64,000 bases of DNA. Source: Bigelowiella natans CCMP2755 (lineage: Eukaryota > Protista > Cercozoa). The notes below the pieces were generated by a model. That model was not told the origin of the DNA. It was given only the letters and a program-made list of their open reading frames with translations, and made no database searches. Numbering within the stretch: the first letter of the stretch is position 1; the number at the start of each line of letters is the position of its first letter. Location of the stretch: assembly GCA_000320545.1 (NCBI GenBank), contig ADNK01001134.1, positions 17,229 through 81,228 of the forward strand, given 5' to 3'. Of this stretch, positions 13,895 to 45,005 are shown in pieces. The position numbers were made by a program, and so were the translations under genes.

Positions 13895-16312
13895 TCACGA
13901 AGATGTGAGTCCTAAGACGTCCCTGGCATCTGCTATGAGATCGGCGTCTTCACTCGTTATGTTAAGCTCTTCGTCCGTTTTCTTAATCTCTCTGAGTTTA
14001 TCGAGAATACCTAGCATCTGCTTGATTGTCGTCTTGTCAATATCAGCTTCACTCGCATTCTCATCGCCCATGGATGTATCTATAGTCTTCAGGACGTATC
14101 TACAAGTGGTGCTAACCACATAGTCAACCCATTTTTGCATGCAATATGCTGTCATATTCCCTCTTTCTTCTTCTTTATCCCCGCTATCTTTCACTTCCTC
14201 CTTCTCATCTAACGCGCTAATGCTATGGCGAGGATTGTTCTTCTTAGTGTGCTCCAATAATTCTTCCCAGTTTCTTGTTGCTGCAGGCTCTGATAGCATC
14301 TCCACAAAGCGCTTGATTATAATCTCGCTTTGCCGCTTCGAGGCGAACTCGGCAACCTTATCATAGCGCCATTCTGGCATAGCCTCTATGTTAACCCAGT
14401 CATCAACTGCCTTTTGTATTGTCTCCACCTCTGCGCCTTCCATGCTACTTTCTACGGCTGTTATTGAAGTTGATATAGCACTGATGTACTCCTCGTTTGA
14501 CTTTAAATCAGCGTCGTGCTTCTCCGTTTCCGTCTTTGCCTTTTCTTCCCAGTCCTGTGTTAAATAAAGTTGAGCCAGGGATTTCAGCTGATACTTGATG
14601 AGGTTTTTACCATTCTTCTACTATCTATGTACAAACTAGAATGCAAACACTCACTTACTTACTTGCTTACTACACGTGATTCGTCGTTGGACTTACTACA
14701 ACTTCCAGAAACACAACCTACTCTTACTCTCTTATAAAGACTCTCATCATTCTTCTCTCCTGCCTCCCCCACGGTACATCATTTCTTCTTTCTCGTATTG
14801 CGGTGAGATGACATAGAGAATAAAACGTTGTTCTTGCTTTTCACAACTTCGGCACTCGGATACCTTAATCTCCTTCATTTTGCTTTCACAACACTCCAAC
14901 TGCCTTTTGACCTCTTTCTCTCTCCACTGAGCAATGGCTTTGCGATGATTTACCGCTCTCACATGCATCTTCTCGCATGACTCTCTCATACGTTTTCTTA
15001 CATCATCGTCAACATCAATTGCCTTCTTTCCTTCAGCCAAAGTTATCTTTCCTGGTGGTTCTATGCCTTTTTGTGTCTCCTCATCTTTGGCATCCTCGAG
15101 GTATTTCTGCCTCGCTTTTTCCGCCTTTTCGGCTCTTGTTGCTTCGCCAGCACCCCAGGATTTTTTTACAGCTTCAAAGTAGGTCGTCTTAGTAACGTCA
15201 GTCTCCATCACAATGGGGTTATCGGAACTGATCATTATCTCCCAGCCAAGCTGTTCTTGTTGGTGTTTCTGCTCTCCTTGAACCGCCATGATTTTCTTTC
15301 CTTGTGATACTTGATGCAGTGGATCTAGTTGGCATGCAAGTAAGTATTTCTTGGAGCAGCCTAAAGGTATGCTCGGAAAGAAGCATTCTCCAATACGAGA
15401 CATCTTTGATATATGCTTTGAGTCTCCCTTGGGCAGCCCTCCTTCAACTTGGATCTCATTAGCATCGTATAAGTTAACATGAAAGGCCGAAGTTCTGTCT
15501 GTGCAAGCGATTTTCACGCTCACAGGTTGCTGTTCCTCCCCCCCCCCCCCTGCAGCGGCGCATGAGATGAGCTCTCGGAACACCGTGTGTGTGTGATTCG
15601 GAATGTAGTCGCCGCTAAAGTAGGTGATACGAGGAAGACTGGACAGTTTGAACTCCATAAATGGCGCGACGGCAAAGAGCATTATTTTCCAATCGCCCGA
15701 ATCCGTATCATGAGGAAGCCGTAGCGATGCAGTAAGCGAATACCTTTTTATGCGAAACGCAAGAGGGAAAACAACATAGGCAAGTTACGGAAAACGGTAC
15801 TAATCAGCCAAGAGCAGGTAGCGGTGGAATGAAGAAAAGACTAACAAGAGCGACGGCACGCTTTTCATATCAATATCAGGAGCTGATGTTAATTGCTTAT
15901 ACCCAGATTCGTTGACGGAAAGAACCCTAGGAGCAGCATCAAGAAGAAGACTTTGTTGCACTTGTAACGTGTCGTTGTTGACCCAATGGAGAATGACATA
16001 TGGGGCTAGAGACGCATCCAACATGTGCATGCAAGTTGACACACGGAACTTCTCTGATGCCAACTCAATGGAACCCTCCTCCTTTACCTTAGCACCATCT
16101 TCGTTTGATGACGATGACTCGAATGGCCTTGCACTTATACTTTCCGGCACTTTGATTTGAATATTAAACAAAGTTATCCAGTCCCCCTTTTTTTTTCTGC
16201 CATATGTTCCCTCGCCGCTATAATGTACTACATCCCATTCTTTGGTTTCTTCTTTGTCGATCCATTTATACCTACCAAACATCATTCACTTTCAAATAAG
16301 ATATAATGGAAA

Positions 16313-16350
<38 letters not shown>

Positions 16351-18588
16351 GAGAGAGGGGGGGGGGGGAGGGGGAGATGCTATGGTTGCCGGTACCCCTT
16401 TCCACTGCCCCATTCTAAGAACTCGAAGGCCTCATTTGCACATGCGAAGATGTAGCAACCGCATTCATTTGATACGGTGACAGAGTATTGCTTTGCTGTA
16501 TCGATTTGAACCGGCACATAACCAAATCCCGTGAAAACCCGTTGTAGAATCAATTTACGATTGTGGGTATACCAATCGAATTCATGCACTGAAACGACAT
16601 AAGAGTGTTCCAAGACTACTGTTTGCTGCTGCTGCTGTTCCTGATCCAGAGAAGAGGAGGAGGCTCCTCCTCCTTTGGTTGCGAGCGTACATTTCTCACC
16701 ATTGTTTTCATCGTTCTTGAGTTCCTTCGCAGCCTCTACCGTGGCAACATCGCCAACACTTTTCGACTGAAGAGGTTCAAAATTTAAATGCACTGTGATA
16801 GTACTACTCACGCTAGCTGGAGAATCTTCATCCTCTTTCTCCTCCCCCCCTGCTGTTTTTTTGGTGGCATAAAGCAGATGGCGTGGCTGATTTGAAAAGG
16901 GCTTCTTCAAATCTGTCCATAAGTCTTTGATTTCATGTTTATGCTCTAATTTTTCTCTTGGGAACACTGTGGTATAGATGCAGAATCGCTTCCACGCACC
17001 GTGTATGCTCGAAGTCTCTTTGAACGAAAGCGTAGTAGGCTTCTCCTCTTCTTGTCTGCCGTCGAGTGTAAGCCGTTTTCTCCTCTTTTTAAGTCTTGGG
17101 CATAGGTTGGTATATTCCAACATGATCTCTTCTTTGCCTTGGTCACTCCCATTACCTTGAGCACCTTCTTCATCCCCATTTTCTGTTCCTGCATTTGCAT
17201 CTTTGCCTTCGTCCTTGGTTTCTTCATTTAGTTGTCCATTTTTGCCATGGAGGGGTCGTATCAAATAGCATCTTGGATGTGGAATGTGAATCCTGCGCTT
17301 CCGTGCCTTTGGCGTTTTTGGGATCTTCTGTTTCTCTTCGTTTTTGATAGCTGCTGTAGAGGGTTCGTCGTTCTGATCTTGACTACTATCACCAGCATCA
17401 TTAGGTGCAGGGTTGTTCACTGAAGTAGCGTCACCCGCCTGGCCACCATCCTTCATATCCTTTTTTTCTTCAGTGACAGCTGCGCCTTCTCCGTCAGAAC
17501 CCTTCCCCCCCTCTTTTTTTTCAGAAGTAGAAGAAGAAGGTATTTCTGCTGCTGCTGCTGCTGCTGTGTTGCTACTACCACTAGTTTGTTTCTCTTGGTC
17601 ATCTGCGTCTTCTTTTCCATCATCATCATCATTTTGAGGGTTACCACTGCTACTATTGTTACCGGCATCTCCTATCTCTAGTATCTGCCTCACAGTAGGG
17701 CTCATGGGAGGACTTTCTGGCGGTGCGTCAGTAGAAAATGGAGGTTCTTCATACAAAAAAGCCCCTAAACAGGACTCCGCACTCAAGCTGTTGACCCAGC
17801 TGTTTTTCGTCTGGCAGGATGATGATTCAGATATTTCCCCATCTCCATCTTCCCCTTTTGCATCATCGTTAGCACCGTCAACGACCTGTTGTACTGCATG
17901 TTCTTGCGTCGTCCAACCGCATAAGTAATTCAGAAAGTTTGACCCGCCTGGATTACAATCCCATGGCTCTACGTGGCAAAGAGCTTTCGCAATGATGAGC
18001 GGCCAACACTCCCCCGCATCAAGCCATCCCATTGACAACGGGAACACAGGCACTCCGTTCGCATCCACAGGAACTCTATCGTCGATAATTACTGACCGCC
18101 AAGTCGAGTGGTAGAAGATGCGGACCACATACCTCCCATTTGATTGATAGATCGGGACTCCTTTCTTGTCTTGGGGATAGATGTTCCTCCACAAGTACTT
18201 GCCATTCGAAGGAAGCTTCTTTGTCAAGTGTGCTACGGCGTGTGCCACAAAGTTGAGTTGGCTGGTAAGATATGTAGCCCAGTAGTTGTTTGTCCCTGAT
18301 GAGAGATCCTCTTGCTGCTGCTGATTCTTGGGAACTCTAGGGGCAATCTGTGACGATACATATACAAATATCCAATCGCCATAAGAAGAAGAAGATAAGA
18401 ATATAAAATGAGGATTACATACCATAATAGGATCTTTGATAGTTTCATCAATAGGGTCCTCCTCTTCCTCATCTGGCTCCTCCTCTCGTCTCCTCTTCTG
18501 CAATTCGATCTGAGTTAATAATAACAACAGTCCATTAGTTGAAGTATCACCCACCTCATTTTACAAACATAGACAGACATGCAAACAT

Positions 18589-20020: not shown

Positions 20021-21217
<1,197 letters not shown>

Positions 21218-22270: not shown

Positions 22271-25049
22271 TTAAGGTGATGTAGGGGCAGGCAAAATAAT
22301 GTCCGACATATCCACTGGGTGGTCGCACGCGGTTCTTAGCCCGGTCTCCTTATTTAGATCTCGGGGAAAGAATCCTTCGTCTACGGCCTGTGGCAGTAGG
22401 AGCTTGTGTGAGTGGTGATGAAGACAATAAAAAATGCACGATAAGTCGTATGTGTCTAGATGCTCAAAATGTTCGAGTGGAATCGGAGTAGAAACCGATT
22501 TTACTCCATACAGGGAGAGCATGTTTGGCGGTTGATGGTGTGGAGAGCTACCATGCTGTAGCTCCAGTATTTCGCTGAAATATCCTTGCTTGCGCTGCCA
22601 TCGACTTTCCAAGCCCAGAAAACCCAACCGAGTTCCTTCTCAAATACAGACTTTTGACCGACAAGTAAGGAAACGTCAAGTAGGAACAAAGTCTCTCAAG
22701 CTCATACAACGGGAGAATAAGGGGAATTATGCGAGATAATAAATTTCTTCCCCATCATCATCATCATCATCATCTTTTATGGAAACGGGCCAGAAAAGAT
22801 TGTTGGACAATTAGTTCATCCTCATCATGGTTTACTTACCCTCTGTCGTTTGGCAAAGTCAGTGACGAGTTCTTTCCATTGGTTGTCGTTGCTCCTCTTG
22901 GCGATGTTCTTGCACTGCCCAAAATCTTGAAACTGATTTGCAGAGCTAGTGGAGCCAGTGAGGAATCCCATACAATCATCTATTGCTAGCGACCATTCGC
23001 CGGTCATCGTCGGTAGGGACGAGCAGGTCTTGTAACGTAGAAGACTTCCATACCCACAAGCCATATCGTTGTGAATAATCTGTTTCATCATGTCATCGTG
23101 AGGGTTGTCGCTGGCCACATCCGATGGATTGAAAGCGTGGTACAAGTGCGTGTCCATGTACACGTTTCTAAAATCAAAGCCCTTACGCCTCAGCAGCCAG
23201 TGCCATTCCTCGTGACGAAAAGCATCACACACCAAAATAGGAAGAGTCCCGTTGATTTGGCGGACCATGGGAATGGCCTTGACGTAGAAATCGCGCACAA
23301 TGCTCATGTCTCCGAAAACCCACGGCTCGTTCATCAGCTCAAGCATGAGGATGTTGTCAACGCCTTTCGAACTTAGCATATTGATGTACTTCGTCATGAC
23401 TTGAAGGATCTCAATGGTGCGCTCTTGATCTTCATCGCTGTAAAACCACCCGTCCCCCCATCTCTCTGGAACAGGGTCCATCGAGCGAATACCGGAGTTA
23501 TCGAGACCGTTTTGACTGCCTGGGGCTCCATGGAGGTCAAGGATGACATGGATGCCGTGTTTAGCTGCGAAACTGATGACCCTGGTGATCGGATGATTCA
23601 TGTCTGTCAAAATGTCCTCATCAGGAGTGATGTAGGGCGCTGGGTCCTGCTGCGCAGCTGCTGCGAAATACCACCAGCCTACAGGTACACGAGCGGTGTT
23701 GATTCCGTATGAGGCCATGAGTTCGAAGTCCTTCTCTGTGTAGAAAGAATCCCAATGTTTCTTGAGAGAGTTTGATAAGCTGGTGTTTCCGGCACCAGCT
23801 TTGCAGTATGTGTATTGGTCGCGGATATCGTCGTTCCATGTGGTGAAGCCCTTGTTGATCCAGGGCTCGAGGACAAACAGCCCACCGACATTGACTCCAC
23901 GTATAGGGTTATCACCGAGAAGGCCTACCCATGGGGTTTTCTTCCATGGATCCACACGTGATGCGCCGCACCAAAGATGCGCCATTCCATTGAAAGAGCA
24001 CGAACTAGGACCAATACCAGCAGTGGTGTTGAATACACCGCCAATGTACGTGCTTAAATAACCAAGATCCCTGAACAATGATTCAACATTTTAAATTGTC
24101 AAAAACATCCCCCGCAGTGCGTCGTTGTACCTCCTAATTTCAAGTTTGTAACTGCAGCTCTCTTATTTGGATGTTGCATTCAACTGTATCCATCACTAAT
24201 CTATTGCTGGGCATCGATGTTTACGCGGTAAAGTATGCAGTGTAGTGTGATAGGCGTAGTACTCTATTCTCATGTTCGACATTATTCTGCAGTCAGTTCT
24301 ATGAAATTATAGTTTATCGATCATATCATTATTACTGTTCCACATCACGTCCTGGAGTGAAAAGGTCAGCGACTCCATTGGGGCAGCTCCAATCCTGGGG
24401 CAGCTGTCCGCAGTTAAAAGTGTGCCCTGGATAGTCTGCGAGAGTGAAAATTCCACGATTTAATCCGCATGAAGATCCCCATATTTGTCCAAGGTTGTCC
24501 CTGGAAGCGGAGTAAGACAATAAAAACAAGGTAAGAGTTGGCAAAGAACGAAAGTTGGATGGATGAATGGACGGCTGTTCTCAAAACATGGATAGATTCT
24601 ACCTGTAGCTATCGATGTTTTCCGCCGTGACACGGTTATCAAGTCGACACTGCATCTCAGAAAAAAGAGCTCCCGCGCGATAAATCTGCAGGGAATTATA
24701 CCAAATGATGAATGACAATAAATATAACGAAGAGGATGGCCAGATAAATAGAATATAAACTGCCGACGTGCAGTGGAAAAAATAGTGAGTTCCCCCTTTT
24801 TTTTCCTATCTGTATATTTCTTCTTACATGGCTCTCGTTGAAGGCCACAATAGCCTCGCTAGGAGCTTGTGCAGGATCATCTCTATGATTGTGGTAGACA
24901 ATAGAGAGAAGAAGGCAGATAGCGGTCATGACAACTACAACTTTGGTTATAGCCTGTCGTGCTCGTTTATCGCCCCACATATCCGAAGCCTTTCTTCCGG
25001 CTTTCCGTCCAAACGCGATAGTTCCATATTCACTGAATTTCCACGCCAT
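22271..25049 (-). CDS. Glycoside hydrolase family 5 exo-beta-1,3-glucanase-like protein with N-terminal membrane anchor
   Basis: IRGVNVGGLFVLEPWI, GINTARVPVGWW, VILDLHGAPGSQNGLDNSG, acid/base ELMNEPW, DTHLY, nucleophile TGEWSLA, GWVFWAWK. Hydrophobic VVVVMTAICLLLSIVY lies near the N-terminus. Confidence 0.92.
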
Positions 25050-30510: not shown

Positions 30511-30924
30511 CCGGTTAGGGCATCTCTTCTCTGTGGTCGGTCGTCGACGTGGGTTGTAACGGTACACACAGCCGACTCGACAGTTTCCGGTTTTTGGTGT
30601 TTTTCGGTGTGATTTTCCCTAAAAAAATGCATCGTTTCTCAGAGCACGGAATGGCTTCTTTCATGACGACAAGGGTCGCTGCTCGCATTTCCGAACAATT
30701 TGAAAAAGCTTCCCCCGAACATGCGAATCGAGCAATCGAAGAGACTTCGCTCGGCCTCCTCGGTTTCATCATGCGGCAGCTATGCTTGGCTGCCCTAGAT
30801 CAACCCCCGCCTCCCTTCCTTCCCGTGGTTCTAATCTGTGCGATTCCCCCGCTAGCCCGCCCGACACCCGAATGCCGAATGCCACGTACTCATTCACTGC
30901 ACGCCCATTGCGCTCATGTCTCCA

Positions 30925-31250
30925 TGTTGCGCGTAAGGTGTTCACAGGCCGAGGCGCTACGTGCACAAGTAGGCAGGGGGGGGGAAAGGCACGTTTGCTT
31001 CCTTTTGAAGAGTTGTGTTTATTTTTATTAAAGATTATATTTTTATTAAATCGTGCACTGCGTAATCATTCGCGAAGCTTTCGCGAATGCCGCCGCACGT
31101 GGGGCAGCACACTTCCGGTGTGCTGCCATGAGTCCCGCCGGAACCCACGTGCCTATGCTGTATTAATATCTACGTTATCTATATTCTATATCCGCGACAA
31201 CCCCTTTGTTGTCGCACGTGACTTGTGCCCGCGTAGTGGTACGCGCTACA
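30925..31250 (-). repeat. 3' LTR (326 bp)
   Basis: Direct repeat of 36313-36638. Terminal inverted repeat matches at 10/11 positions (TGTTGCGCGTA / TACGCGCTACA). Confidence 0.97.
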
Positions 31251-31258
31251 CCTCCCCC
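31251..31258 (-). other. Polypurine tract (GGGGGAGG)
   Basis: Purine run on the element's sense strand, directly abutting the 3' LTR TG. Confidence 0.85.
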
Positions 31259-31301
31259 AAGTCACGTTGCTCCTTCCTTCCTTCCTTATTCCCTTAGACC
31301 T

Positions 31302-34300
31302 TCATCGCTTTCGGAACTTCACCAACCACCAGGTAATAGATTCCTCTCTAACCTTATCTCCTTTGTCGCTTACCCAGAACTCACCTTCGTCCTTAGGTTC
31401 GTGTCCATACCAGCCCTCTGCATCAAGGTCCCCCAGGACCTTATACCAGTGCTCAAAGGGTAAGTCGGGAACAGCTAGGTAGAGTAGCTGATATTTTCCG
31501 TCCTTTATTTTCATAGCTACCCTCTCCATATTTCGTAATCCAGGGTAGCCTAGATAGACAATCTTCATGCGCCAATCGTCGTTCACCCTGACCTTATTGT
31601 TTCCATATTCCACATCGAACTTAGGTCGGGGTCCTAAACAAGGCATTGCTCGCTCCCACACAGTAGGGTTTACTTTAACATCCTCTAGGAGCTTCTCACC
31701 GATATCATAATTCTTTAGGTGACTGATGTGGCGCAAGGTGACCCTGTTCCCATCATAGATGTAGTACTGCTTCCTCCCCTTCCTCTCGGTAACCTTTGCA
31801 ACGCCACCCCAGAAGGGGTCTTGTTTATTTCTCGATCTCAGATTTACCTTGGCCCTAACATACTGTCCTTCCTTTAGAACTCGGCCATCGTACGGGACCT
31901 TCTCGTCTTCGCTCTCGGTATCGTCGTCGTTGTCGTCGCCTTCTTCCCTCTCCTTATCCTTGATACCTCCCCCAGACGTGAAGGTGTCGTTTACTAACCC
32001 TTGTATCTTGTCTGGTGTGGTGCTATTTATCCTGCTTAGGTTGGCCAAGGTGCGGTGGAGTCGCTCTACCTTGGAGTTGGACTGGGCATAGTATACAGGT
32101 GAGGCATCAATATTAGGGTGTGGTAGCTGTAGAAGAGAGGTCTCATTATCCACATGTAACTTCTTTGGTATCTTGTTTATGCTAACTTCATCAGGGATAG
32201 CCTGGAGCTCAGACTCCCAGGTACGGTAGCAGTTAGTAAGCCTCTGCTTATATAAGCCTTTGTTCTTCTTAGCAACGTTGACCTTGATAATCTTTTTAAC
32301 CCAGCACTTTCCAGTGGCCACATCAACGAAGGTAAGGTAGTGATAGCCATCGTACTTATAAACATCAATTTGCACGATATCTAAGAAGTTCCTTGCTTTG
32401 ATTTTCTTAGATGCACGGCTCTTGCTGGACTCCTTGGTGGCGACGCCTGCCGCCTTCAAGCTGGAGCACCTGCAGCCACGCAGGTATGTCCTTATCTCTT
32501 TTAGCTTGTAGGGCCAGTAGTAATGGTAGAGTAGAGCAGTGATATGGTTTTCTCCTACGTGTGCAGGTCCATGGGCGGTAAAGAGAAGGGCTCCCCTGGT
32601 CCGCCGTGGCACGTAGGTACGCCTAACATTATTAGTGTATACATATATCCTATCACTAAGTACCTCATGCTTGTGTTTGTATTTATCCAGGTGTTCTTGA
32701 AGGTGCTGGAGCTCCTCTGGCTCAGGCAGGAAGTCGCCGTCCTCGAAGGTAATCGCGTTAACCATAGGGGTGACCTGGGTAGGGACTTTCTTTTCGAACA
32801 GCCTGCTGAAATAGTCAGCAAGCTGCTTGTCTCCTGGTGCGTAGACCACTGTCCTCTTGTCCCTAAACTCTTCCGTGTCCGCCCTCATAGCTGCATACTC
32901 ATCGTTAGGCGCTTCGAGCTTGCGGTCGATGCCTAGGAGGGGCTTGTGGTCAGTCATTAAGGTGAAGCTGGGCACCGACAGCAGGTAGTATCTTAGTTTC
33001 CTCTGCGCCTCAGTCATGGCTTTATACTCTCCTTTTGTAGGGCTGTACTTGGCCTCAGCTGCTGTGCAGGCCCTGCCCCACACCCGTATGATCTGCTGGT
33101 CTTGGGTAAGTACAGCAGCCATACCTAGCTTAGACCAGTCTGTCCATAGGGTAGCTGGTCTAGTAGTGTCTAGCTTAGCATTCAATAGGGTGTTGCTGCA
33201 TAACTTTATTAGGTTATCGAAGTGGGCATCAAGGCCAGCCTTGGCCCACACCTTAGCGAAGCTGAGGCCTACAGAGTTCTCCTTCCGGTAAGCAGTAGTA
33301 AAAGCAGCTGCAGTCCTAGCGTAGGTAGGGGAGAACCTACGTAGTATCCAAGCTGCAGTCTGCAAGAATGACTTTAACTCCTTTGCATTCTTAGGTTTAG
33401 GGGCTTGCTGTAGTGCTGCTACTTTCTCGGGGTTTGGGGTGATGCGGCCTTGCTCCAGGTAATATCCACACCACTTGATTCTTGTAGCTAGGAATGTACA
33501 CTTCTGCAGTCTAATAGTAAAACCGAAGTGTGCAAACCTAATAAATATATTTTCCAGGAGGAAGATCTGAGCGACGACTGTGTTGGTACATATTATGTCA
33601 TCATCCACATACACAAACACAAACACCCACAACACAGACGCCATCCCATCATGTGTGTATGCCCTGTAGTTCTGACTACTGAACGCATCCCCTGATATGC
33701 TTAGGCCGTAAGGGAATACGACGAAGTGCCACTTCCTGTGCCTGCTGGAGAACGCGGTAATGGGGCGGGAGGTTTTGTGGATGGGTGTCTGCATGTATGA
33801 TTCATTTTTATCTAGGGAAGAGTAGTATTTGTATCCTATGACGTGTTCAATAACGTCATCTATCCTTGGTGTAGGTGTCTGGATCCTCTTTATTACTCGG
33901 TTGTGGCGGATGAAGTTGTGCGCCAGGCGGAAGAAAGGGTAAGTAGGTTTCTTAGCTAGCACATGTCTCACGTTCCATGGTGAGTTGCTTGGCTCTATCT
34001 TCCCTTCCTTTGCCCATTCATTGATCTGCCACTCTATCTTTTCCCAGTCCGCTTCCGGTCGCCTATGTTCTGGGTCATTGATGATGCACTCTTCGTATCC
34101 CTTCTTTAGCTCGATCTTTACTGGGGTAAGCTTGCTGGAGGGCTTCGTCGTCGGCTTGGTGATGTCAGAGTACTTCTCGTTTAATATTTTATTAATGTAC
34201 TTTTTGCCTTTGTCGATATCCCAATCATCAGCTGGGGGGGTCTTGTCCAGTAGCTCCGTTATCTGTCGGATGGTCTTGCCGGGGTTCTTCTTCCGTAGCT

Positions 34301-35744
34301 CGGTAGGTGTAGGTAGCTTGTTGTCCGCTAGGTCCATAAACTCTAACGCATTAACGCTTGACTCAGAGGTCCACTCGTCAAGCCGTATCATGTTCTGGCT
34401 GATGGTCCTGCCTGACTTCTTTGGCAACTTAGCAAAGTATATCTTGTGATTGTAGAATGATATGATCCCCCCTAATTTTTCTAGGGCATCCTGTCCGAGG
34501 AGTAGTTCCATGGATAAAGTCATGGCTACTCGGGTCTTGATTTGGGTCTCCGCGTCGCTGCCAGGTATCTGTAGCTTTAGCATTAGCTCACCGACGGTCT
34601 TCATGGAAGAGCTTCCGTCTGCTTGAGCATATTTACGTTCTTTCTTAGTCACTTGATCCAATAGTCCTAACCTTCTTACTGTGCTTAGGCTTATGAAGGA
34701 CTTCGGCATGCTGCCACTATCCCAAAGGGCAGGTAGTTTCTTGTAGTCTCCGTAGCTGTCTTTAACTTTAACCTTGGTCATAGCAACTTTGATAGTCCTG
34801 TTAGCGTCTTCGTCATTAATGTTGCATACTCCTAAGTTCTTTATGTCGTCTAGGGTCATGGGCTTGTCTTGGTCCTGCGTTGCTGGTACTGCTGTCTTCG
34901 TCGGCGCCTGCTTAAGGTGATCTAATATTCCGTTTATCTGCTGCTGTATAGCATTGATACTGTTCTGCTTTTTGTTCTTATATTTATTGTTCTTCCCGTT
35001 GTTGCTGCCTTGCCATTTGCTGTTGTTATATCCTTGTCCTCTGCCTTTCTTTCTCTTTAACTTCTCGTAGTGTTCGTTGAGCTGCCTGATCGTCATCCTG
35101 GGTCGTCCTTCTTTCCTGTCTCTGCAGTCTTTAGCGGTGTGTTTCCCTTTACGTGAGCAGTATCCGCAACGTCGGTTACCTTCCCTGTCCTTGTACCAGT
35201 CTCGCTGCGGCTTAATAGCGTTAATGTTTCCTATGCCAGGTACCTTAGGGCTGGTAAACTTGCGGTCCTGCTCCTGCTCGCGTAGGGATATAGCCTGCAC
35301 TGCTGCCTCCATCGTGGTGTAGCCTTTCTCCGTAACGTAAGTGGATTCCTTTATCTTTAACTTGAACTCTTCAAACCTTGCCTGATCATCACCTGTGTTG
35401 TAATTAAAATCATGTAGTTCGTCGATCATATCCTGGAAGCGCGTGGCAAAGTCTCTAACAGGTTCTCTCTCATGCTGCATCATTGCTCTGTATTTTCTAA
35501 TAGCCTGGGGTAGGGAGTTAGCATCCTGTTCATTTACAAAAGCCTTCATTATCGCCTCAACGTCTCGTAGCCCACTAACTGTAGTGTGTATTTTCTCTAG
35601 CTGCCTGATCCGGGTCCTGCCTGTCTCGTAAAGGTCCATGGCTTGCTTTATTATAGCTAGCCATTTGAGCTTGTCGTTTTCGGTGGGGTTAGGTAAAGTC
35701 GCAGAGTATACTCCTAGCGTTCTTCCACCACCTCCTTGCCTCAC
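31302..35744 (-). CDS. Retrotransposon ORF2: capsid C-terminal part, zinc knuckle, aspartic protease, RT, RNase H, integrase, C-terminal Dam-like domain
   Basis: Q..EPVRDFATRF; CGYCSRKGKHTAKDC; ALWDSGS; YVDD (about 33600-33611); WTDWS..TDHKPL; IVQID..HVDNE..KVERLHRTL. The ORF starts at a GTG with no ATG nearby. Confidence 0.95.
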   Translation of the reverse strand: MRQGGGGRTLGVYSATLPNPTENDKLKWLAIIKQAMDLYETGRTRIRQLEKIHTTVSGLRDVEAIMKAFVNEQDANSLPQAIRKYRAMMQHEREPVRDFATRFQDMIDELHDFNYNTGDDQARFEEFKLKIKESTYVTEKGYTTMEAAVQAISLREQEQDRKFTSPKVPGIGNINAIKPQRDWYKDREGNRRCGYCSRKGKHTAKDCRDRKEGRPRMTIRQLNEHYEKLKRKKGRGQGYNNSKWQGSNNGKNNKYKNKKQNSINAIQQQINGILDHLKQAPTKTAVPATQDQDKPMTLDDIKNLGVCNINDEDANRTIKVAMTKVKVKDSYGDYKKLPALWDSGSMPKSFISLSTVRRLGLLDQVTKKERKYAQADGSSSMKTVGELMLKLQIPGSDAETQIKTRVAMTLSMELLLGQDALEKLGGIISFYNHKIYFAKLPKKSGRTISQNMIRLDEWTSESSVNALEFMDLADNKLPTPTELRKKNPGKTIRQITELLDKTPPADDWDIDKGKKYINKILNEKYSDITKPTTKPSSKLTPVKIELKKGYEECIINDPEHRRPEADWEKIEWQINEWAKEGKIEPSNSPWNVRHVLAKKPTYPFFRLAHNFIRHNRVIKRIQTPTPRIDDVIEHVIGYKYYSSLDKNESYMQTPIHKTSRPITAFSSRHRKWHFVVFPYGLSISGDAFSSQNYRAYTHDGMASVLWVFVFVYVDDDIICTNTVVAQIFLLENIFIRFAHFGFTIRLQKCTFLATRIKWCGYYLEQGRITPNPEKVAALQQAPKPKNAKELKSFLQTAAWILRRFSPTYARTAAAFTTAYRKENSVGLSFAKVWAKAGLDAHFDNLIKLCSNTLLNAKLDTTRPATLWTDWSKLGMAAVLTQDQQIIRVWGRACTAAEAKYSPTKGEYKAMTEAQRKLRYYLLSVPSFTLMTDHKPLLGIDRKLEAPNDEYAAMRADTEEFRDKRTVVYAPGDKQLADYFSRLFEKKVPTQVTPMVNAITFEDGDFLPEPEELQHLQEHLDKYKHKHEVLSDRIYVYTNNVRRTYVPRRTRGALLFTAHGPAHVGENHITALLYHYYWPYKLKEIRTYLRGCRCSSLKAAGVATKESSKSRASKKIKARNFLDIVQIDVYKYDGYHYLTFVDVATGKCWVKKIIKVNVAKKNKGLYKQRLTNCYRTWESELQAIPDEVSINKIPKKLHVDNETSLLQLPHPNIDASPVYYAQSNSKVERLHRTLANLSRINSTTPDKIQGLVNDTFTSGGGIKDKEREEGDDNDDDTESEDEKVPYDGRVLKEGQYVRAKVNLRSRNKQDPFWGGVAKVTERKGRKQYYIYDGNRVTLRHISHLKNYDIGEKLLEDVKVNPTVWERAMPCLGPRPKFDVEYGNNKVRVNDDWRMKIVYLGYPGLRNMERVAMKIKDGKYQLLYLAVPDLPFEHWYKVLGDLDAEGWYGHEPKDEGEFWVSDKGDKVREESITWWLVKFRKR

Positions 35745-36273
35745 CTCTTTTCCCGTTGTATTTCGTTATCATAACCGGTGCTGTTTTAACAGACATGAAC
35801 TGGGTGTTCCGCTGTACCGGCTGCTGCTGCTTGACGGTGCTCTGGGTCGTCCCCCGCGAGGCGCCCAGACCCCCGTCGTTCCTAAACAAAGCTGCCCACT
35901 CTGGAGGTAAGTCTGCTTCGTAATCCATGATGTCCTGCATGATAGCTGCCCAAACATCATGTGTCTGATACTTGTATTCTATCGATACTTTCAGTTTGGC
36001 GTAGTTGCTCGCCCTGGGTCGCAAGGCTCGTAATGCCATTACGACCTTCTTGCTTTCGGCGGCCACGTCCTCGTCGTCCGCCTCGTAGAAGTTCTCCAGT
36101 GCCTCTGCTGCTGCATCTGCTTTCTTAATCCCGGGTGCTGGTCCCGGCGGTGCCTGTGGAGGTGTTCCTCCTCCTTCCTTAGCGTCCGTATCGCCCTTCC
36201 TTTCCTGTTTCTGCTCGTGCCCTTGCACGGCCTGCGAGCCAAAGTCCTGCTGTTCTTCTAGCTGCTGTGACAT
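35689..36273 (-). CDS. Retrotransposon ORF1: N-terminal part of Gag (194 aa)
   Basis: ATG lies just downstream of the PBS. The ORF ends with the capsid-like ITKYNGKRGEARRWWKNAR motif and overlaps ORF2, which is in the +1 frame. Confidence 0.85.
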   Translation of the reverse strand: MSQQLEEQQDFGSQAVQGHEQKQERKGDTDAKEGGGTPPQAPPGPAPGIKKADAAAEALENFYEADDEDVAAESKKVVMALRALRPRASNYAKLKVSIEYKYQTHDVWAAIMQDIMDYEADLPPEWAALFRNDGGLGASRGTTQSTVKQQQPVQRNTQFMSVKTAPVMITKYNGKRGEARRWWKNARSILCDFT

Positions 36274-36289
36274 TGTTAGTCAAATCGTT

Positions 36290-36307
36290 TCCCGTGTGTG
36301 GAAGCCA
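36290..36307 (-). other. Primer-binding site TGGCTTCCACACACGGGA
   Basis: Begins with TGG (complement of tRNA CCA) 5 nt after the 5' LTR. The plus strand reads like a tRNA 3' end: ...TCCCGTGTGTGGAAG-CCA. Confidence 0.7.
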
Positions 36308-36312
36308 AAGGT

Positions 36313-36638
36313 TGTTGCGCGTAAGGTGTTCACAGGCCGAGGCGCTACGTGCACAAGTAGGCAGGGGGGGGGAAAGGCACGTTTGCTTCCTTTTGAAGAG
36401 TTGTGTTTATTTTTATTAAAGATTATATTTTTATTAAATCGTGCACTGCGTAATCATTCGCGAAGCTTTCGCGAATGCCGCCGCACGTGGGGCAGCACAC
36501 TTCCGGTGTGCTGCCATGAGTCCCGCCGGAACCCACGTGCCTATGCTGTATTAATATCTACGTTATCTATATTCTATATCCGCGACAACCCCTTTGTTGT
36601 CGCACGTGACTTGTGCCCGCGTAGTGGTACGCGCTACA
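36313..36638 (-). repeat. 5' LTR (326 bp)
   Basis: Identical to 30925-31250. The sense strand has a TA-rich TATA-like segment followed by clustered AATAAA. Confidence 0.97.
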
Positions 36639-37379
36639 TCCACATGATCTAGATGATGTCCATGTCTCAAAATGCTAGAATGGCATGAATGCGGTGTGCG
36701 ATGTGCGCGTGCGGGCCGCGACACATTGCTCGATTGAGCTAACGAGATGCACGTGTTTGGATGCAAGCGTGGAAATAGCGGCCCGCCCAGCTAGCCAGCT
36801 TCGCATCGCTGCATTCTGCGAACTGTGCATGAGCTAGACGAGGTTCAGCTAGAGCTCCACCAGGCGTGCTCCATGGGTGCTGTGCATGCGCAGCGGGGAT
36901 CGAAGCTTGTTGGTCATGCAATTAATGGAAATGCGATGCATTACCGTTTGTACGTGCAATGATGCATGTCTCAATTGTATGGCTTGCAGTTTTCTATATT
37001 TCATGCAGACTAGCCTACTACACATGGCAAACAAGCTCCTATTAGCTGAGCTAGCAATGCGCACATCTAGCTAGACACACCTCAGCTACGTGTGTGATAC
37101 AGTGGTTGGCCAACCTGCTTTCCCTTAAACCGCGCGTCACCGCTCTCATGCTACGCGGATTTGCATCTATGGCTTAGTGGATGATCTGGATGCTCGGGAA
37201 GCTAGAAGAAGTATTAAGTGTGACTTCAATTCGTTTCGAGTGCTTAACCCATTGCCTGCTGCGTGTAGACTAACGCACGAATTGCAACGAAAAATTACGA
37301 GCCTTGGCCATGTCAACGTATGCCTGCGCAATGGTAGTGAAGAAGAACAGAAGAAAGAGGAAATATATATAATTAAAGA

Positions 37380-41032: not shown

Positions 41033-42557
41033 ATGATTAGCGATGACGGTATCAGCGCTTACGAGCGCCAGCGGCTGGAGAACATACGCCGGAATGAAGA
41101 CATGCTCAGAAAGTAAGTCTCTTGCCACGATCATTCTTGAGACGGCATAGGAAGCCAGAACGCCCCTGATTGGACGCCGTTTGACGATAATGTATCTCCA
41201 GATTGGGCCTTCATGTTGAGTCGTTTTCCACGGCTGTGGCTGGCTATAACCGAGGAGGGCATCCAACATCGGGGAAGTCATCTTCTAGACCGCAAAAGAA
41301 GAAGACCTCTAAGAAGGTAACAGAAAGTAGATCATATTGCAAATTTCGGTGGCATTAGAAGATCAACCATTCTTTACTGCATCTCTCTCTCTCCCTCTCT
41401 CTCTTTGAAATCGCATATGCGCCACGTTATACCTTACCCTCGGCAGAGAGGAGGAGGAGCATATCTCAAACAACCACAAGATAGATCAAAGATAGGAGGT
41501 AAATGACACTCATCCGGTGACATGCTGTTTCCGCTGCATGATGACTCTTGGCCAGAACAACACACCAATACGATATAATTCTGTGGATTGTAGTGAATCT
41601 TGTTGTTGGCTGGCGTGAATTAGGGAGCCGGAGATCCTTGAGGCTTTTGGGAATAAAAGCAAAGCCTCAGGTGGTGTTTAGATTGTTAGCAGTCATTGTT
41701 AATTCAGACAAACACGACGATATACAAACACCGAGTATGTACAGAAAATTGAGAGAATACAGAGAATTAAGGGCGATATGGTCGAATTATGTCACACACG
41801 AATGTAGATTATTACTTCTCGACGATCATGCTCTCTGTTTTAATCCCCCCCCCCCAAAAAAAGAGTGAGGCGGACGTTGCTTTGTTGGACTCTCTCGATG
41901 AGGAAGTAGATGAAGACGGAAGCAACCATAGCAAGAAAAGATATCGCCCGCAACAACAACAACAACATTATTCTCACTTGAATAAAAAGAAGAAAACCAC
42001 CAAGGAACCTAAACCAAGGCCACCCCCAGCCAAAGATTCATCAAGGTAAAAGCAAACCACGTGTAACGATAACGATGCAGCTGAACATAATCAACACTGG
42101 AAAAAACGCAAGAAGAAGAACAATAATCATAATCATGGTAGCATGACGATGTTCATATTTTTGTTGGAGCAGCAAGTAAGTTTGCTACCAACACACCAAG
42201 TGTGCCAAGGAGAGTCTCAAATCGAGGAATCCTCAATGCTTATTGATGTTGTCCTTTTCGTCGTTGCACAGGGCCCTTGACGTGGATTTAGATAATTTAC
42301 AGCAGAACTACCTTGGAAAACCGGTAGTAGCATGATTGCCCTGACATGTGAGATGGTGATGGTGTTAGTAAAGAAGATGTGCCAACCGCGCCACCATCAT
42401 TATCTCATTACAACCCACTGTGTGGATCAGTGCGGTAGGCTAAAGCGCGAGGTAGTGTCTGTTTTGCATCCTCAGAGTATGCACGTCAGATTCTCCAAAT
42501 ACTCCGGCATTTTAGGTGCTGCTGGTTCCCTGCCCTCACTGTAACTTGGCGATGATA

Positions 42558-42589
<32 letters not shown>

Positions 42590-42755
42590 AGTGAATGATT
42601 ACGGTGGTGGTGATGAGGATAATGGTCGCGTGTGCTTGGAATAAGCTGATTGTTCTTCGCTGAGCGGATATGGTCAAAGTTGTTGCTTGATTGAGGACTC
42701 ATTGATCGAAACTACTTACTGAGTTGACTGGTTTTTTTTGCTTTTCTCCCCCGCC

Positions 42756-42806
<51 letters not shown>

Positions 42807-44220
42807 CTTTCGGTCTTCCCTGCATACTTGCATCAACATGTCGTTATTGTGGCGGCTCCTTGTTGATTCGTGTCGATGTATGATGGGTCCAGAATGGAAG
42901 AATGCCATAGTGCTATGGGTCATACTACTAACGCTCTTTTGCCTTCCTCACTTCACTCATTAGATTCATAGATTACTAATGCTAATGTTAATGATGATGA
43001 TGATAATGATGATGATGATGATATCGATGGTGATGATCTCGATGGTGGTGGAGGTGATGCATATTTTATCTTTTGCCATCATGTTAATAAATGCACATAT
43101 CATCCTCCCTTACAGGTCAATATATACGGGGATAGTTACAAAAATCTCTTCTTGGAGAATGTGCGTCAATGATGATAATGACAATAACGATGACGACGAC
43201 GGCGATGATGATGATGATGATGATTCAATGTATTTTTACATCATATGAAGACAACTCATCAGACACGTTCTCAGTTACACATATGATATGCATTTATCAC
43301 GTATTTATAGCAATGCTAATGAGCGCCACCACACTGTGTATTCATTGCTACGGCTGTTCGAATTAAAGCAGCATCATCATCGTGATCGGTTTTCCCTACC
43401 ACAATGGTGATGATAATAACAACAATAATAATATTATAAACCTGCATCAGGGGCGACAGCTCACGTGGTTCGGACAATCGAGACAGACAGAAGAAACACC
43501 CGTGAGTCGTACAAGAGAGAGGAAAGAGGGGGGGGGGGTTATAAAAAGGAAGAAAAAGAAGAGAGAGGGCGAAAGAGCAAAGGTGAATGGTTGGATTTTC
43601 AATTGAGTAGATTGAGTAGTAATGTTGGTAGAAGGATATGGTGATGTTGATGTAGTAGACAATTCCCTTCTTTTGAATGTTCCTTCTAATGCTCCTACCA
43701 CTGTAACTCCTTTCAATTTTTAGTCACATTCATTCATCGTTGTCTTTGTTATTCCATGCTGATGTATCCTTTCTCCTTCTTCTCCTTCTCCTTCTTCTTT
43801 TCCTCCTTCTTCCTTTCCTCCTTCTTCTTCTTCTTCTTCTTCTTCTTCTTCTTTTTGTCGTTTATTTTTATTTTTCTCCTTTCCTCCTCCTCATCCATCT
43901 GATCTTCTGCTTCTTCTATGCAACCACCACCTCATCAAACCTTAGGTAATTCGTAAGATGATTCCCTCAACCCCCCCTTCGTTGGATGAAGGAAGCTGTC
44001 GCACTAAAGTAGCGAAGGAGGAGGGAAAACAAGAAGGAGGGAAGATGTTACCAGTGTTACTACTCTGCCGACTGGAGGGGGGAGACTATATCTATTGCGG
44101 ACGTTTGAAGTACTAGCTACTAGACGCATAATATTAGAATATAATTCAAGTCATAATCGCGCTACGAATGTAGCGTATTGTCAACAGCACGTCCTTTCGC
44201 CGAATTACGTCGCATTAGTT

Positions 44221-44255
<35 letters not shown>

Positions 44256-44761
44256 TATCACTGTTATTGTTGTAATTGTTGTTATTGTTATCATCCACCA
44301 CACGGTCTTCTTTGTGTATCACTACATCGTATCGTGCTCGTACAAACATAACAATAACGCCATCAAGGAGGAGGAGGAGGAGGAGGAGGGGGGGGGAGAG
44401 GAGGAAGAGCAAGTAATTGAAGAAACGATGATCGGTATGTGGTTTCGATGATTCTCACAGGTATCTTGCTCATGATCCAACCAAGCTGCCGCTGCGTTTC
44501 GTGTGGGAACTTGCCTCCCACCAGCAGCTGACTAAAAAGAACAAGAAAGGGGGGGGGGGGAGGAAAAAGAACAAGATTAAGAGAGGTGATGGAGCGTGCA
44601 ACCATGATGATCTTTCACCGCATCGTTCAAATATGTGTTTTAATGAATCAATCAACGAGTGAATAAATGATGAGATATATACACCGAATCATCTGTCTGA
44701 CCCATGTACAAGGGGATAATGACGATACTTATATATACATATATGTAATATAATATATGTG

Positions 44762-44805
<44 letters not shown>

Positions 44806-44816
44806 GACATTTATGT

Positions 44817-44853
<37 letters not shown>

Positions 44854-45005
44854 CGTGTGTGTTTATGTGAGCAGAAAAAGGAAATGATGATACCGATGAT
44901 GATGATGATGATGATACCGGCACTTCTGGAGATGACTACTTCATGGGTCTTGTGAGAGAGTCAGAAGCGATCGCTGGCAGTCTCTATTCTAAGAACGTGC
45001 AGTAA
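41033..45005 (+). CDS. Protein with N-terminal YERQRLENIRRNEDMLRKLGL helix, basic linker and C-terminal DUF3427/SRA-like domain; about 14 exons
   Basis: Exon 1 (41033-41112) and exon 2 (from 41202) give the helix. RRSLRL follows, then RFSKYSGIL|EWKNAIVLW|VNIYGDSYKNLFLEN|GRQLTWFGQSRQTEETP|VIRKM..VLLLCRLEGGDYIYCGRLK|YLAHDPTKLPLRFVWEL. Middle and last exons are tentative. Confidence 0.7.

Follow-up and report, generated by a model that had tools for sequence, protein, structure and literature searches.

A widespread protist protein combining a WDR76/Cmr1-type helix with an SRA-fold domain is a candidate adaptor for HELLS/DDM1

INTRODUCTION

CDCA7 is an adaptor of the HELLS/DDM1 remodelers that pairs an N-terminal helix (HLBH) with a zf-4CXXC_R1 domain, and deletion of the helix is reported to abolish HELLS binding (PMC11343034). 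A further partner of enzymes of this family (MUS-30/Irc5/HELLS) is WDR76/Cmr1, a WD40 protein related to DDB2. In Neurospora, WDR76 copurifies with MUS-30, the orthologue of HELLS, in a methylation-independent damage pathway, and the same link is cited for yeast and mammals (PMC4714748). Here, we describe a gene of the cercozoan Bigelowiella natans CCMP2755, located in a 64,000-nucleotide stretch of contig ADNK01001134.1 (positions 17,229 to 81,228, forward strand; hereafter the window), whose product joins a helix also present on WDR76/Cmr1-like proteins to an SRA-fold domain related to bacterial DUF3427.

SRA domains that read 5-methylcytosine (5mC), such as those of UHRF1, SUVH, TagI, and SauUSI, flip the base between two aromatic walls and carry a carboxylate (Asp or Glu) in the pocket. 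SauUSI has been modelled to hold the flipped 5mC by Trp868 and Asp858 (PMC7913695), and in TagI the pocket carboxylate is credited with choosing modified cytosine over thymine (PMC6212794). PvuRts1I, a reader of 5-hydroxymethylcytosine (5hmC) and its glucosylated form, carries Asn217 at this place in the pocket, with Glu228 close by (PMC4157451). As described below, the B. natans protein and its relatives keep the aromatic walls and replace the carboxylate by Asn.

Many eukaryotes that lack both CDCA7 and any DNA methyltransferase (DNMT) have retained HELLS/DDM1. The family described here provides a small candidate for its targeting in such species, exemplified by Capsaspora, and adds a eukaryotic SRA lineage that is distinct from UHRF1/SUVH and has an altered pocket.

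RESULTS

A 13-exon gene encodes helix and domain in one chain

The gene spans window positions 41033..45005 on the forward strand and comprises 13 exons (41033-41112, 41202-41316, 41447-41498, 41624-41670, 41864-42045, 42272-42323, 42431-42515, 42893-42918, 43116-43160, 43451-43501, 43946-44109, 44461-44585, and 44875-45005), which form an open frame of 384 amino acids with protein and RNA matches; all 12 introns have GT-AG borders. An earlier note, made from the letters of the window, had placed the gene at 41033..44520. While this start stands, the end does not: exon 12 is longer (to 44585), and the coding part goes on through exon 13 to a stop codon at 45003-45005. Exon 13 (44875..45005, forward strand), encoding an acidic tail and a C-terminal helix, is identical in 43 of 43 residues (tblastn) to the spliced database protein P0001. 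Upon splicing, the motifs quoted in the note all appear, namely FSKYSG (42491-42508), YKNLF (43137-43151), TWFGQ (43463-43477), LLCR (44060-44071), and FVWEL (44498-44512), along with the helix and RRSLRL.

P0001 (373 amino acids, from a 1403-nt contig) was the sole protein returned when the longest domain exon was used as the query, and it contains helix, linker, and domain in one reading frame. The 13-exon model agrees with it in 368 of 384 columns, and with a second spliced database protein, P0155, in 378 of 384. Both belong to the same cluster, the third member of which is B. natans gene model 134137 (P0154). The first 203 residues of that model are identical to the 13-exon product; it then reads through the donor of exon 7 (window 42516-42545) and ends at 213 amino acids. 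We rejected it as the true product. The read-through drops the SRA domain, and such a model would hide the gene from proteome surveys.

Marine metatranscriptome contigs from close strains show the GT-AG joints between exons 1-2, 3-4, 4-5, 5-6, and 6-7, and loose contig ends are readable as exons 7-8-9 (X16 and X18) and 10-11 (X16 and X17). Joints 2-3, 11-12, and 12-13 are supported by P0001 and P0155 only, and joint 9-10 by these two proteins plus one 10-letter loose end. The raw RNA run X21, of which ∼6% was read, yielded two placed reads and adds nothing to the gene model. Since the RNA contigs agree with both spliced database proteins on one chain, we rejected the possibility that helix and domain belong to separate transcripts; the single transcript assumed in the note is borne out.

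Two peculiarities of the locus are recorded here. Within exon 12 (window 44533-44577), a short direct repeat lies on both sides of a G-run, and the 10 residues between its copies are absent from P0001 and present in P0155, reflecting either an allele or an assembly collapse. The single RNA-library contigs X16 and X18 also cover intron sequence (window 41125-41332 and 43232-43348), either as unspliced RNA or as DNA carry-over. Pfam returned no matches for six single-exon translations.

A compact and widespread protist family

A phmmer search of representatives at 50% identity reached 683 clusters at a threshold of E ≤ 1e-3; the count fell to 365 at 1e-10 and to 23 at 1e-30. Family counts per row below come from the best 150 of the 683 clusters. 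Species names were obtained for 30 clusters that were looked up and for two more via the helix-profile search described below; most clusters are nameless. By name, carriers are B. natans, Amorphochlora amoebiformis, Diaphanoeca grandis, Salpingoeca rosetta, Capsaspora owczarzaki, Ectocarpus siliculosus, Nannochloropsis, Tribonema minus, and Cymbomonas; that is, the family spans Rhizaria, stramenopiles, a green alga, choanoflagellates, and Capsaspora. The label GSMAST32 suggests an additional member from a MAST-3 stramenopile. The named members are annotated as hypothetical or uncharacterized, with the exception of one automatic "Sm domain-containing" label.

Family members are small: only 1 of the 150 rows exceeds 450 amino acids, and each named species has one compact member among the clusters looked up. 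The residues C-terminal of the domain number 22 in the median and 72 at most (150 rows), which leaves no room for a fused nuclease. The nuclease or helicase that modification-dependent restriction enzymes carry in the same chain is absent from these 150 of the 683 clusters.

Close relatives outside eukaryotes did not emerge. A single-protein query of prokaryotic genomes gave 28 pattern matches, none of which was confirmed as a close relative, and none of 95 pattern matches in viral contigs was confirmed as a relative. No close relative was found in plasmids or in phages, two low-complexity phage matches having been discarded, and PADLOC gave no match for any of four proteins. In titles and abstract openings of the open-access literature, we found no description of a eukaryotic DUF3427-like family or of the shared helix, and the word "eukaryot" does not occur in PMC6765204. 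The family is thus real, widespread, and apparently undescribed so far, in line with the uncharacterized protist system that the note had raised as possible.

An SRA fold with an altered base pocket

The domain (about residues 150-318; window 42018..44512, forward strand, from the end of exon 5 to exon 12) is, judged by its predicted structure and by profile homology, an SRA fold distantly related to DUF3427. AlphaFold2 returned a model with a predicted template modeling score of 0.63, in which the domain core forms the SRA beta-barrel at a predicted local distance difference test (pLDDT) score of 89-99, with low values in an insert at residues 251-280. The top Foldseek match was SauUSI (E = 5e-5), followed by LpnPI, SUVH6, TagI, AspBHI, and SUVH5. 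In a wide VIA search, all 15 matches at Z of at least 5 were SRA domains, including SUVH5 (Z 10.2, root mean square deviation 3.1, 124 aligned residues), SauUSI (Z 9.9, root mean square deviation 2.6, 112 aligned residues), UHRF1 (Z 8.3), and the PvuRts1I/AbaSI SRA-like domain (Z 8.3-8.5). The next match had a Z of 4.7, and no EVE, YTH, or ASCH structure reached 5 in this search.

At the sequence level, the relationship is remote. Pfam DUF3427 (PF11907) matched 13 of 150 members at E ≤ 0.1 (best, 4.2e-10), P0001 had no Pfam match at all, and four members scored singly reached 14-27 bits, below the 27.7-bit cutoff. Aligning the family with a bacterial DUF3427 profile, hhalign gave a probability of 97.2 (E = 2.9e-11, 96 columns). 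The bacterial set was obtained by fetching 120 loci with a DUF3427 motif and keeping the 89 whose open segment was of sufficient length; 8 of 8 segments checked pass Pfam DUF3427. A tree made by a quick method from 56 of 148 eukaryotic and 20 of 89 bacterial rows only splits eukaryotic from bacterial rows, with the family on a long branch. Origin of the domain from a restriction system is plausible, and we make no claim as to the direction of transfer. Atlas features of 0.88-0.89 for SRA/DUF3427 likeness serve as a lead only, and a PDB sequence search with the family profile gave nothing significant.

The pocket is where the family departs from its relatives. Its motif Y-x-N (Y220 and N222 in P0001 numbering) is encoded at 43137..43145 and its tryptophan, W233, at 43466..43468, both on the forward strand; alignments put W233 in register with SauUSI Trp868. 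Across 149 rows, N222 and W233 are each conserved in 99% and Y220 in 89%. Written out, the family reads Y220-K-N222-L-F...T-W233-F, one residue longer than the Y-E-D858-E-F...K-W868-F of SauUSI, the aromatics Y856 and W868 of which are in register by motif. The position of the SauUSI Asp858 is thus taken by Asn, while 86 of the 89 bacterial segments, a motif-selected subfamily, have Asp at the equivalent of N222. The family also lacks a conserved acidic residue after the Trp. Because the aromatics are kept, Asn stands for Asp, and no conserved acidic residue follows the Trp, the pocket looks intact yet not of the 5mC type.

Compared with known readers, the domain shares the fold, the Y-x-[DN]-x-F...W-F pocket motif, and profile homology with the target-recognition domain of SauUSI and with DUF3427, but the family has no PLD, helicase, or PD-(D/E)XK nuclease and is eukaryotic and intron-rich. 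Fold and aromatic sandwich are common to UHRF1/SUVH as well; here, identity is 15-19%, the sequence is nearer to DUF3427, and SET, RING, PHD, and the pocket Asp are all missing. With PvuRts1I/AbaSI, the family shares the fold and the pocket Asn, but neither the nuclease nor, as far as we could see, a conserved counterpart of Glu228.

A helix and RRSxR cassette shared with WD40 proteins

The N-terminal helix (residues 8-30; window 41054..41211, forward strand, split by intron 1) follows the pattern YE..R..NI..N...L..LG, is conserved in the family, and is modelled as a helix at residues 9-27 with pLDDT 90-95. A hidden Markov model built from members matched 88 of the 104 aligned rows (among the 150) that have at least 120 residues upstream of the domain, versus 0 of 150 shuffled N-termini; its recurrence in the family is not due to chance. 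Further along, a basic, low-confidence linker contains the RRSLRL motif (41629..41646, forward strand). RRS.R is found in 53 of 69 helix-bearing members, compared to a mean of 0.97 and a maximum of 4 in 200 shuffles. This is the RRSxR core by which HMGN and Dsup anchor on the acidic patch (PMC12487698), making the motif a candidate anchor of the same kind.

We also asked where else the helix occurs. Scoring 7984 candidates with a profile built from 30 helix sequences, we obtained 32 proteins, 21 from the family and 11 from elsewhere: five with WD40, three with HRDC, one with Agenet-PHD, and two without a class. In 9 of these 11, R[RK]S.R lies 53-62 residues past the helix start, and all five WD40 proteins have both helix and R[RK]SxR. 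The closest solved structure to one of them, P0184, is DDB2, and P0184 and P0185 align along their length. Architecture, DDB2 likeness, and mutual alignment suggest that these WD40 proteins are WDR76/Cmr1-like, and the sharing of the helix with such proteins had indeed been anticipated by the note. Helix pattern, R[RK]S.R, and similar spacing thus link our family to the presumed WDR76/Cmr1 proteins, from which it differs by an SRA domain in place of the DDB2-like beta-propeller.

No zf-4CXXC_R1 protein or CDCA7 was among the 32 matches of this word-limited search, and a PDB sequence search with the helix profile returned nothing significant and no CDCA7 chain. An Atlas search with residues 1-100 gave unnamed eukaryotic clusters under 0.9, again a lead only. 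With CDCA7, the family shares its small, nonenzymatic layout of N-terminal helix, disordered linker, and C-terminal DNA-reading domain, and its helix may be like that of CDCA7. The difference lies in the reader, which is an SRA fold rather than zf-4CXXC_R1 (no Pfam match; two CxxC in 0 of 150 members).

Other proteins with the cassette merit mention. In P0172, P0175, and P0178 (214-250 amino acids), helix and RRSxR are joined to HRDC without a helicase, making them another candidate adaptor family. The helix-bearing P0177 and P0179 have a region with a W[FL]LSHP motif in common, to which P0177 adds Agenet and PHD; P0179 has no Pfam match.

Occurrence relative to HELLS and DNA-modification enzymes

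Three carriers of the family protein, Capsaspora, Ectocarpus, and Tribonema, appear in supplement 1 of a published survey (PMC10538959). There, Capsaspora is listed with HELLS and with neither DNMT nor CDCA7; for Ectocarpus, DNMT2 is the only DNMT entry, HELLS is missing, and 5mC is marked as undetected; and Tribonema combines HELLS and DNMT5 with a CDCA7-like gene, being the exception among the SAR (stramenopile, alveolate, rhizarian) genomes, from which CDCA7 is otherwise absent. The 6mA (N6-methyladenine) methyltransferase AMT1 is recorded in one of five carriers checked, Capsaspora, in PMC12695648 supplement table 1, where the all-zero rows of Ectocarpus and Nannochloropsis may reflect proteome gaps. 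On these five species, we rejected AMT1-type 6mA as a general ligand.

In this small sample, the family follows neither 5mC nor 6mA writers and agrees with HELLS in two of three species. A ligand that needs no host writer is therefore favored, while the partner is left uncertain. We gathered 17 HELLS-type sequences with human HELLS as their best PDB match, none of which was assignable to B. natans.

DISCUSSION

A tentative model

The features described above, i.e., a single chain, a shared helix-plus-motif cassette, an SRA fold, two aromatic pocket walls, and Asn for Asp, lead us to favor, still tentatively, a nuclease-free SRA adaptor that uses its WDR76/Cmr1-type helix and RRSxR to bring HELLS/DDM1 to a flipped base on nucleosomes, a base that is probably not canonical 5mC. 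In this model, the SRA domain would flip out a nonstandard or damaged pyrimidine (of the uracil/thymine type, a mispaired T, or an oxidized C), RRSxR would hold the nucleosome by anchoring on the H2A-H2B acidic patch, and the helix would recruit HELLS by docking on its N-terminal coil in the manner of the CDCA7 helix. Binding to HELLS and to nucleosomes is reasonable to infer because of the copurification of WDR76, the CDCA7 helix deletion, and the anchor role of the motif in HMGN and Dsup. The protein might then be a genome-maintenance counterpart of WDR76 and not a methylation-maintenance factor. Capsaspora, with family protein and HELLS and with no DNMT or CDCA7 listed, speaks for this model.

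Several observations weigh against it. Asn217 of PvuRts1I implies that Asn may be compatible with cytosine derivatives, and we set Asn against Asp by sequence motifs that differ by an insertion of one residue rather than by residue-level superposition, hhalign having set its gap elsewhere in this region. The helices of three named stramenopile members (P0032, P0118, and P0218) score ∼19 bits versus 35-44 for the other named members, and Tribonema, which has HELLS, is among the weak ones. Which part of WDR76 binds HELLS is not mapped in the accounts cited here. Ectocarpus siliculosus carries the family protein with no HELLS in the table of PMC10538959, and both Rhizaria of that panel, to which B. 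natans does not belong, are likewise without HELLS.

A bolder version of this adaptor model, which we regard as doubtful, is that an ancient and widespread protist adaptor ties HELLS to a base unread by any known SRA domain, such as uracil, 5-hydroxymethyluracil, or mispaired thymine, by virtue of the Asp-to-Asn exchange. If so, CDCA7, WDR76, and the HRDC and Agenet-PHD fusions would be interchangeable readers on one HELLS-docking cassette, and the retention of HELLS in eukaryotes that have lost DNA methylation would be explained. In any case, the cassette offers a handle to search for more HELLS adaptors.

Alternative explanations

The PUA/SRA-like, DUF3427-related domain posited by the note is confirmed by Foldseek, VIA, and hhalign, and we must ask whether the protein could be what the note made of it, a convergent substitute for CDCA7 that recognizes 5mC or 5hmC and calls in HELLS to maintain methylation where CDCA7 is lacking. 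The structural matches at Z of at least 8 are SRA proteins mostly titled as methyl- or hydroxymethylcytosine readers, Y220 and W233 are kept, CDCA7 is missing from the listed SAR genomes other than Tribonema, and PvuRts1I combines a pocket Asn with 5hmC reading. However, the cytosine-selecting Asp is Asn in 99% of the rows, the Glu that follows the Trp in PvuRts1I has no conserved equivalent, Capsaspora and Ectocarpus retain the family without a listed DNMT (and, in the latter, without detected 5mC), and Tribonema holds both the family protein and a CDCA7-like gene. The methyl-sensing role is weakened accordingly, and we consider it unlikely. Rather improbable, too, is that the helix is a general dock for some non-HELLS partner (DDB1/CUL4, histones, or a different SNF2 ATPase), in which case the protein would be a chromatin sensor that flips bases and acts through another effector. 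In favor of this reading, DDB1 works with both DDB2 and WDR76, the helix is found on unrelated domains, its WD40 partner domain is DDB2-like, and the family occurs in Ectocarpus, where HELLS is not listed. That gap, however, may be one of annotation, and CDCA7 and WDR76/Cmr1, the two characterized proteins credited with a helix of this kind, both associate with HELLS-family enzymes.

A restriction ancestry of the domain, which is plausible, raises the prospect of a defense sensor that has lost the nuclease and recognizes modified bases of viral DNA, whether incoming or integrated, to trigger chromatin silencing. Such a role would account for retention where the host writes no mark; the bacterial relatives are specificity domains of restriction systems (PMC6765204, PMC7913695), and giant viruses of chlorarachniophytes are reported to carry 6mA, 5mC, and N4-methylcytosine (4mC) (PMC13196603). 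Yet neither PADLOC nor the viral contigs lent it support, and one compact member per named species, with no sign of domain shuffling past the SRA, is not the expected picture, so that we give this scenario little credence. Even less probable, in our view, is that the ligand of the domain is DNA 6mA or a modified RNA base. While PUA-superfamily folds include adenine and RNA readers, a divergent fungal SRA has been proposed as an m6A reader (PMC4738411), and AMT1 is present in Capsaspora, the four other carriers checked show no AMT1 in that supplement table, and all EVE, YTH, and ASCH structures stayed under Z 5.

Other features of the window

The CpG observed/expected ratio of the window is 0.82 and uninformative on methylation. 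Upstream of the gene, the reverse strand contains a 1487-codon open frame at 31305-35765 that by eye resembles an LTR (long terminal repeat) retrotransposon gag-pol and has a repeated stretch on either side, near 30700-31300 and 36100-36650. Also by eye, an exon at 20627-21061 (forward strand) resembles a Rab11-type small GTPase, a 421-codon frame at 22828-24090 (reverse strand) a GH5 glycosidase, and the region at 13898-18560 (reverse strand) a calpain-type gene.

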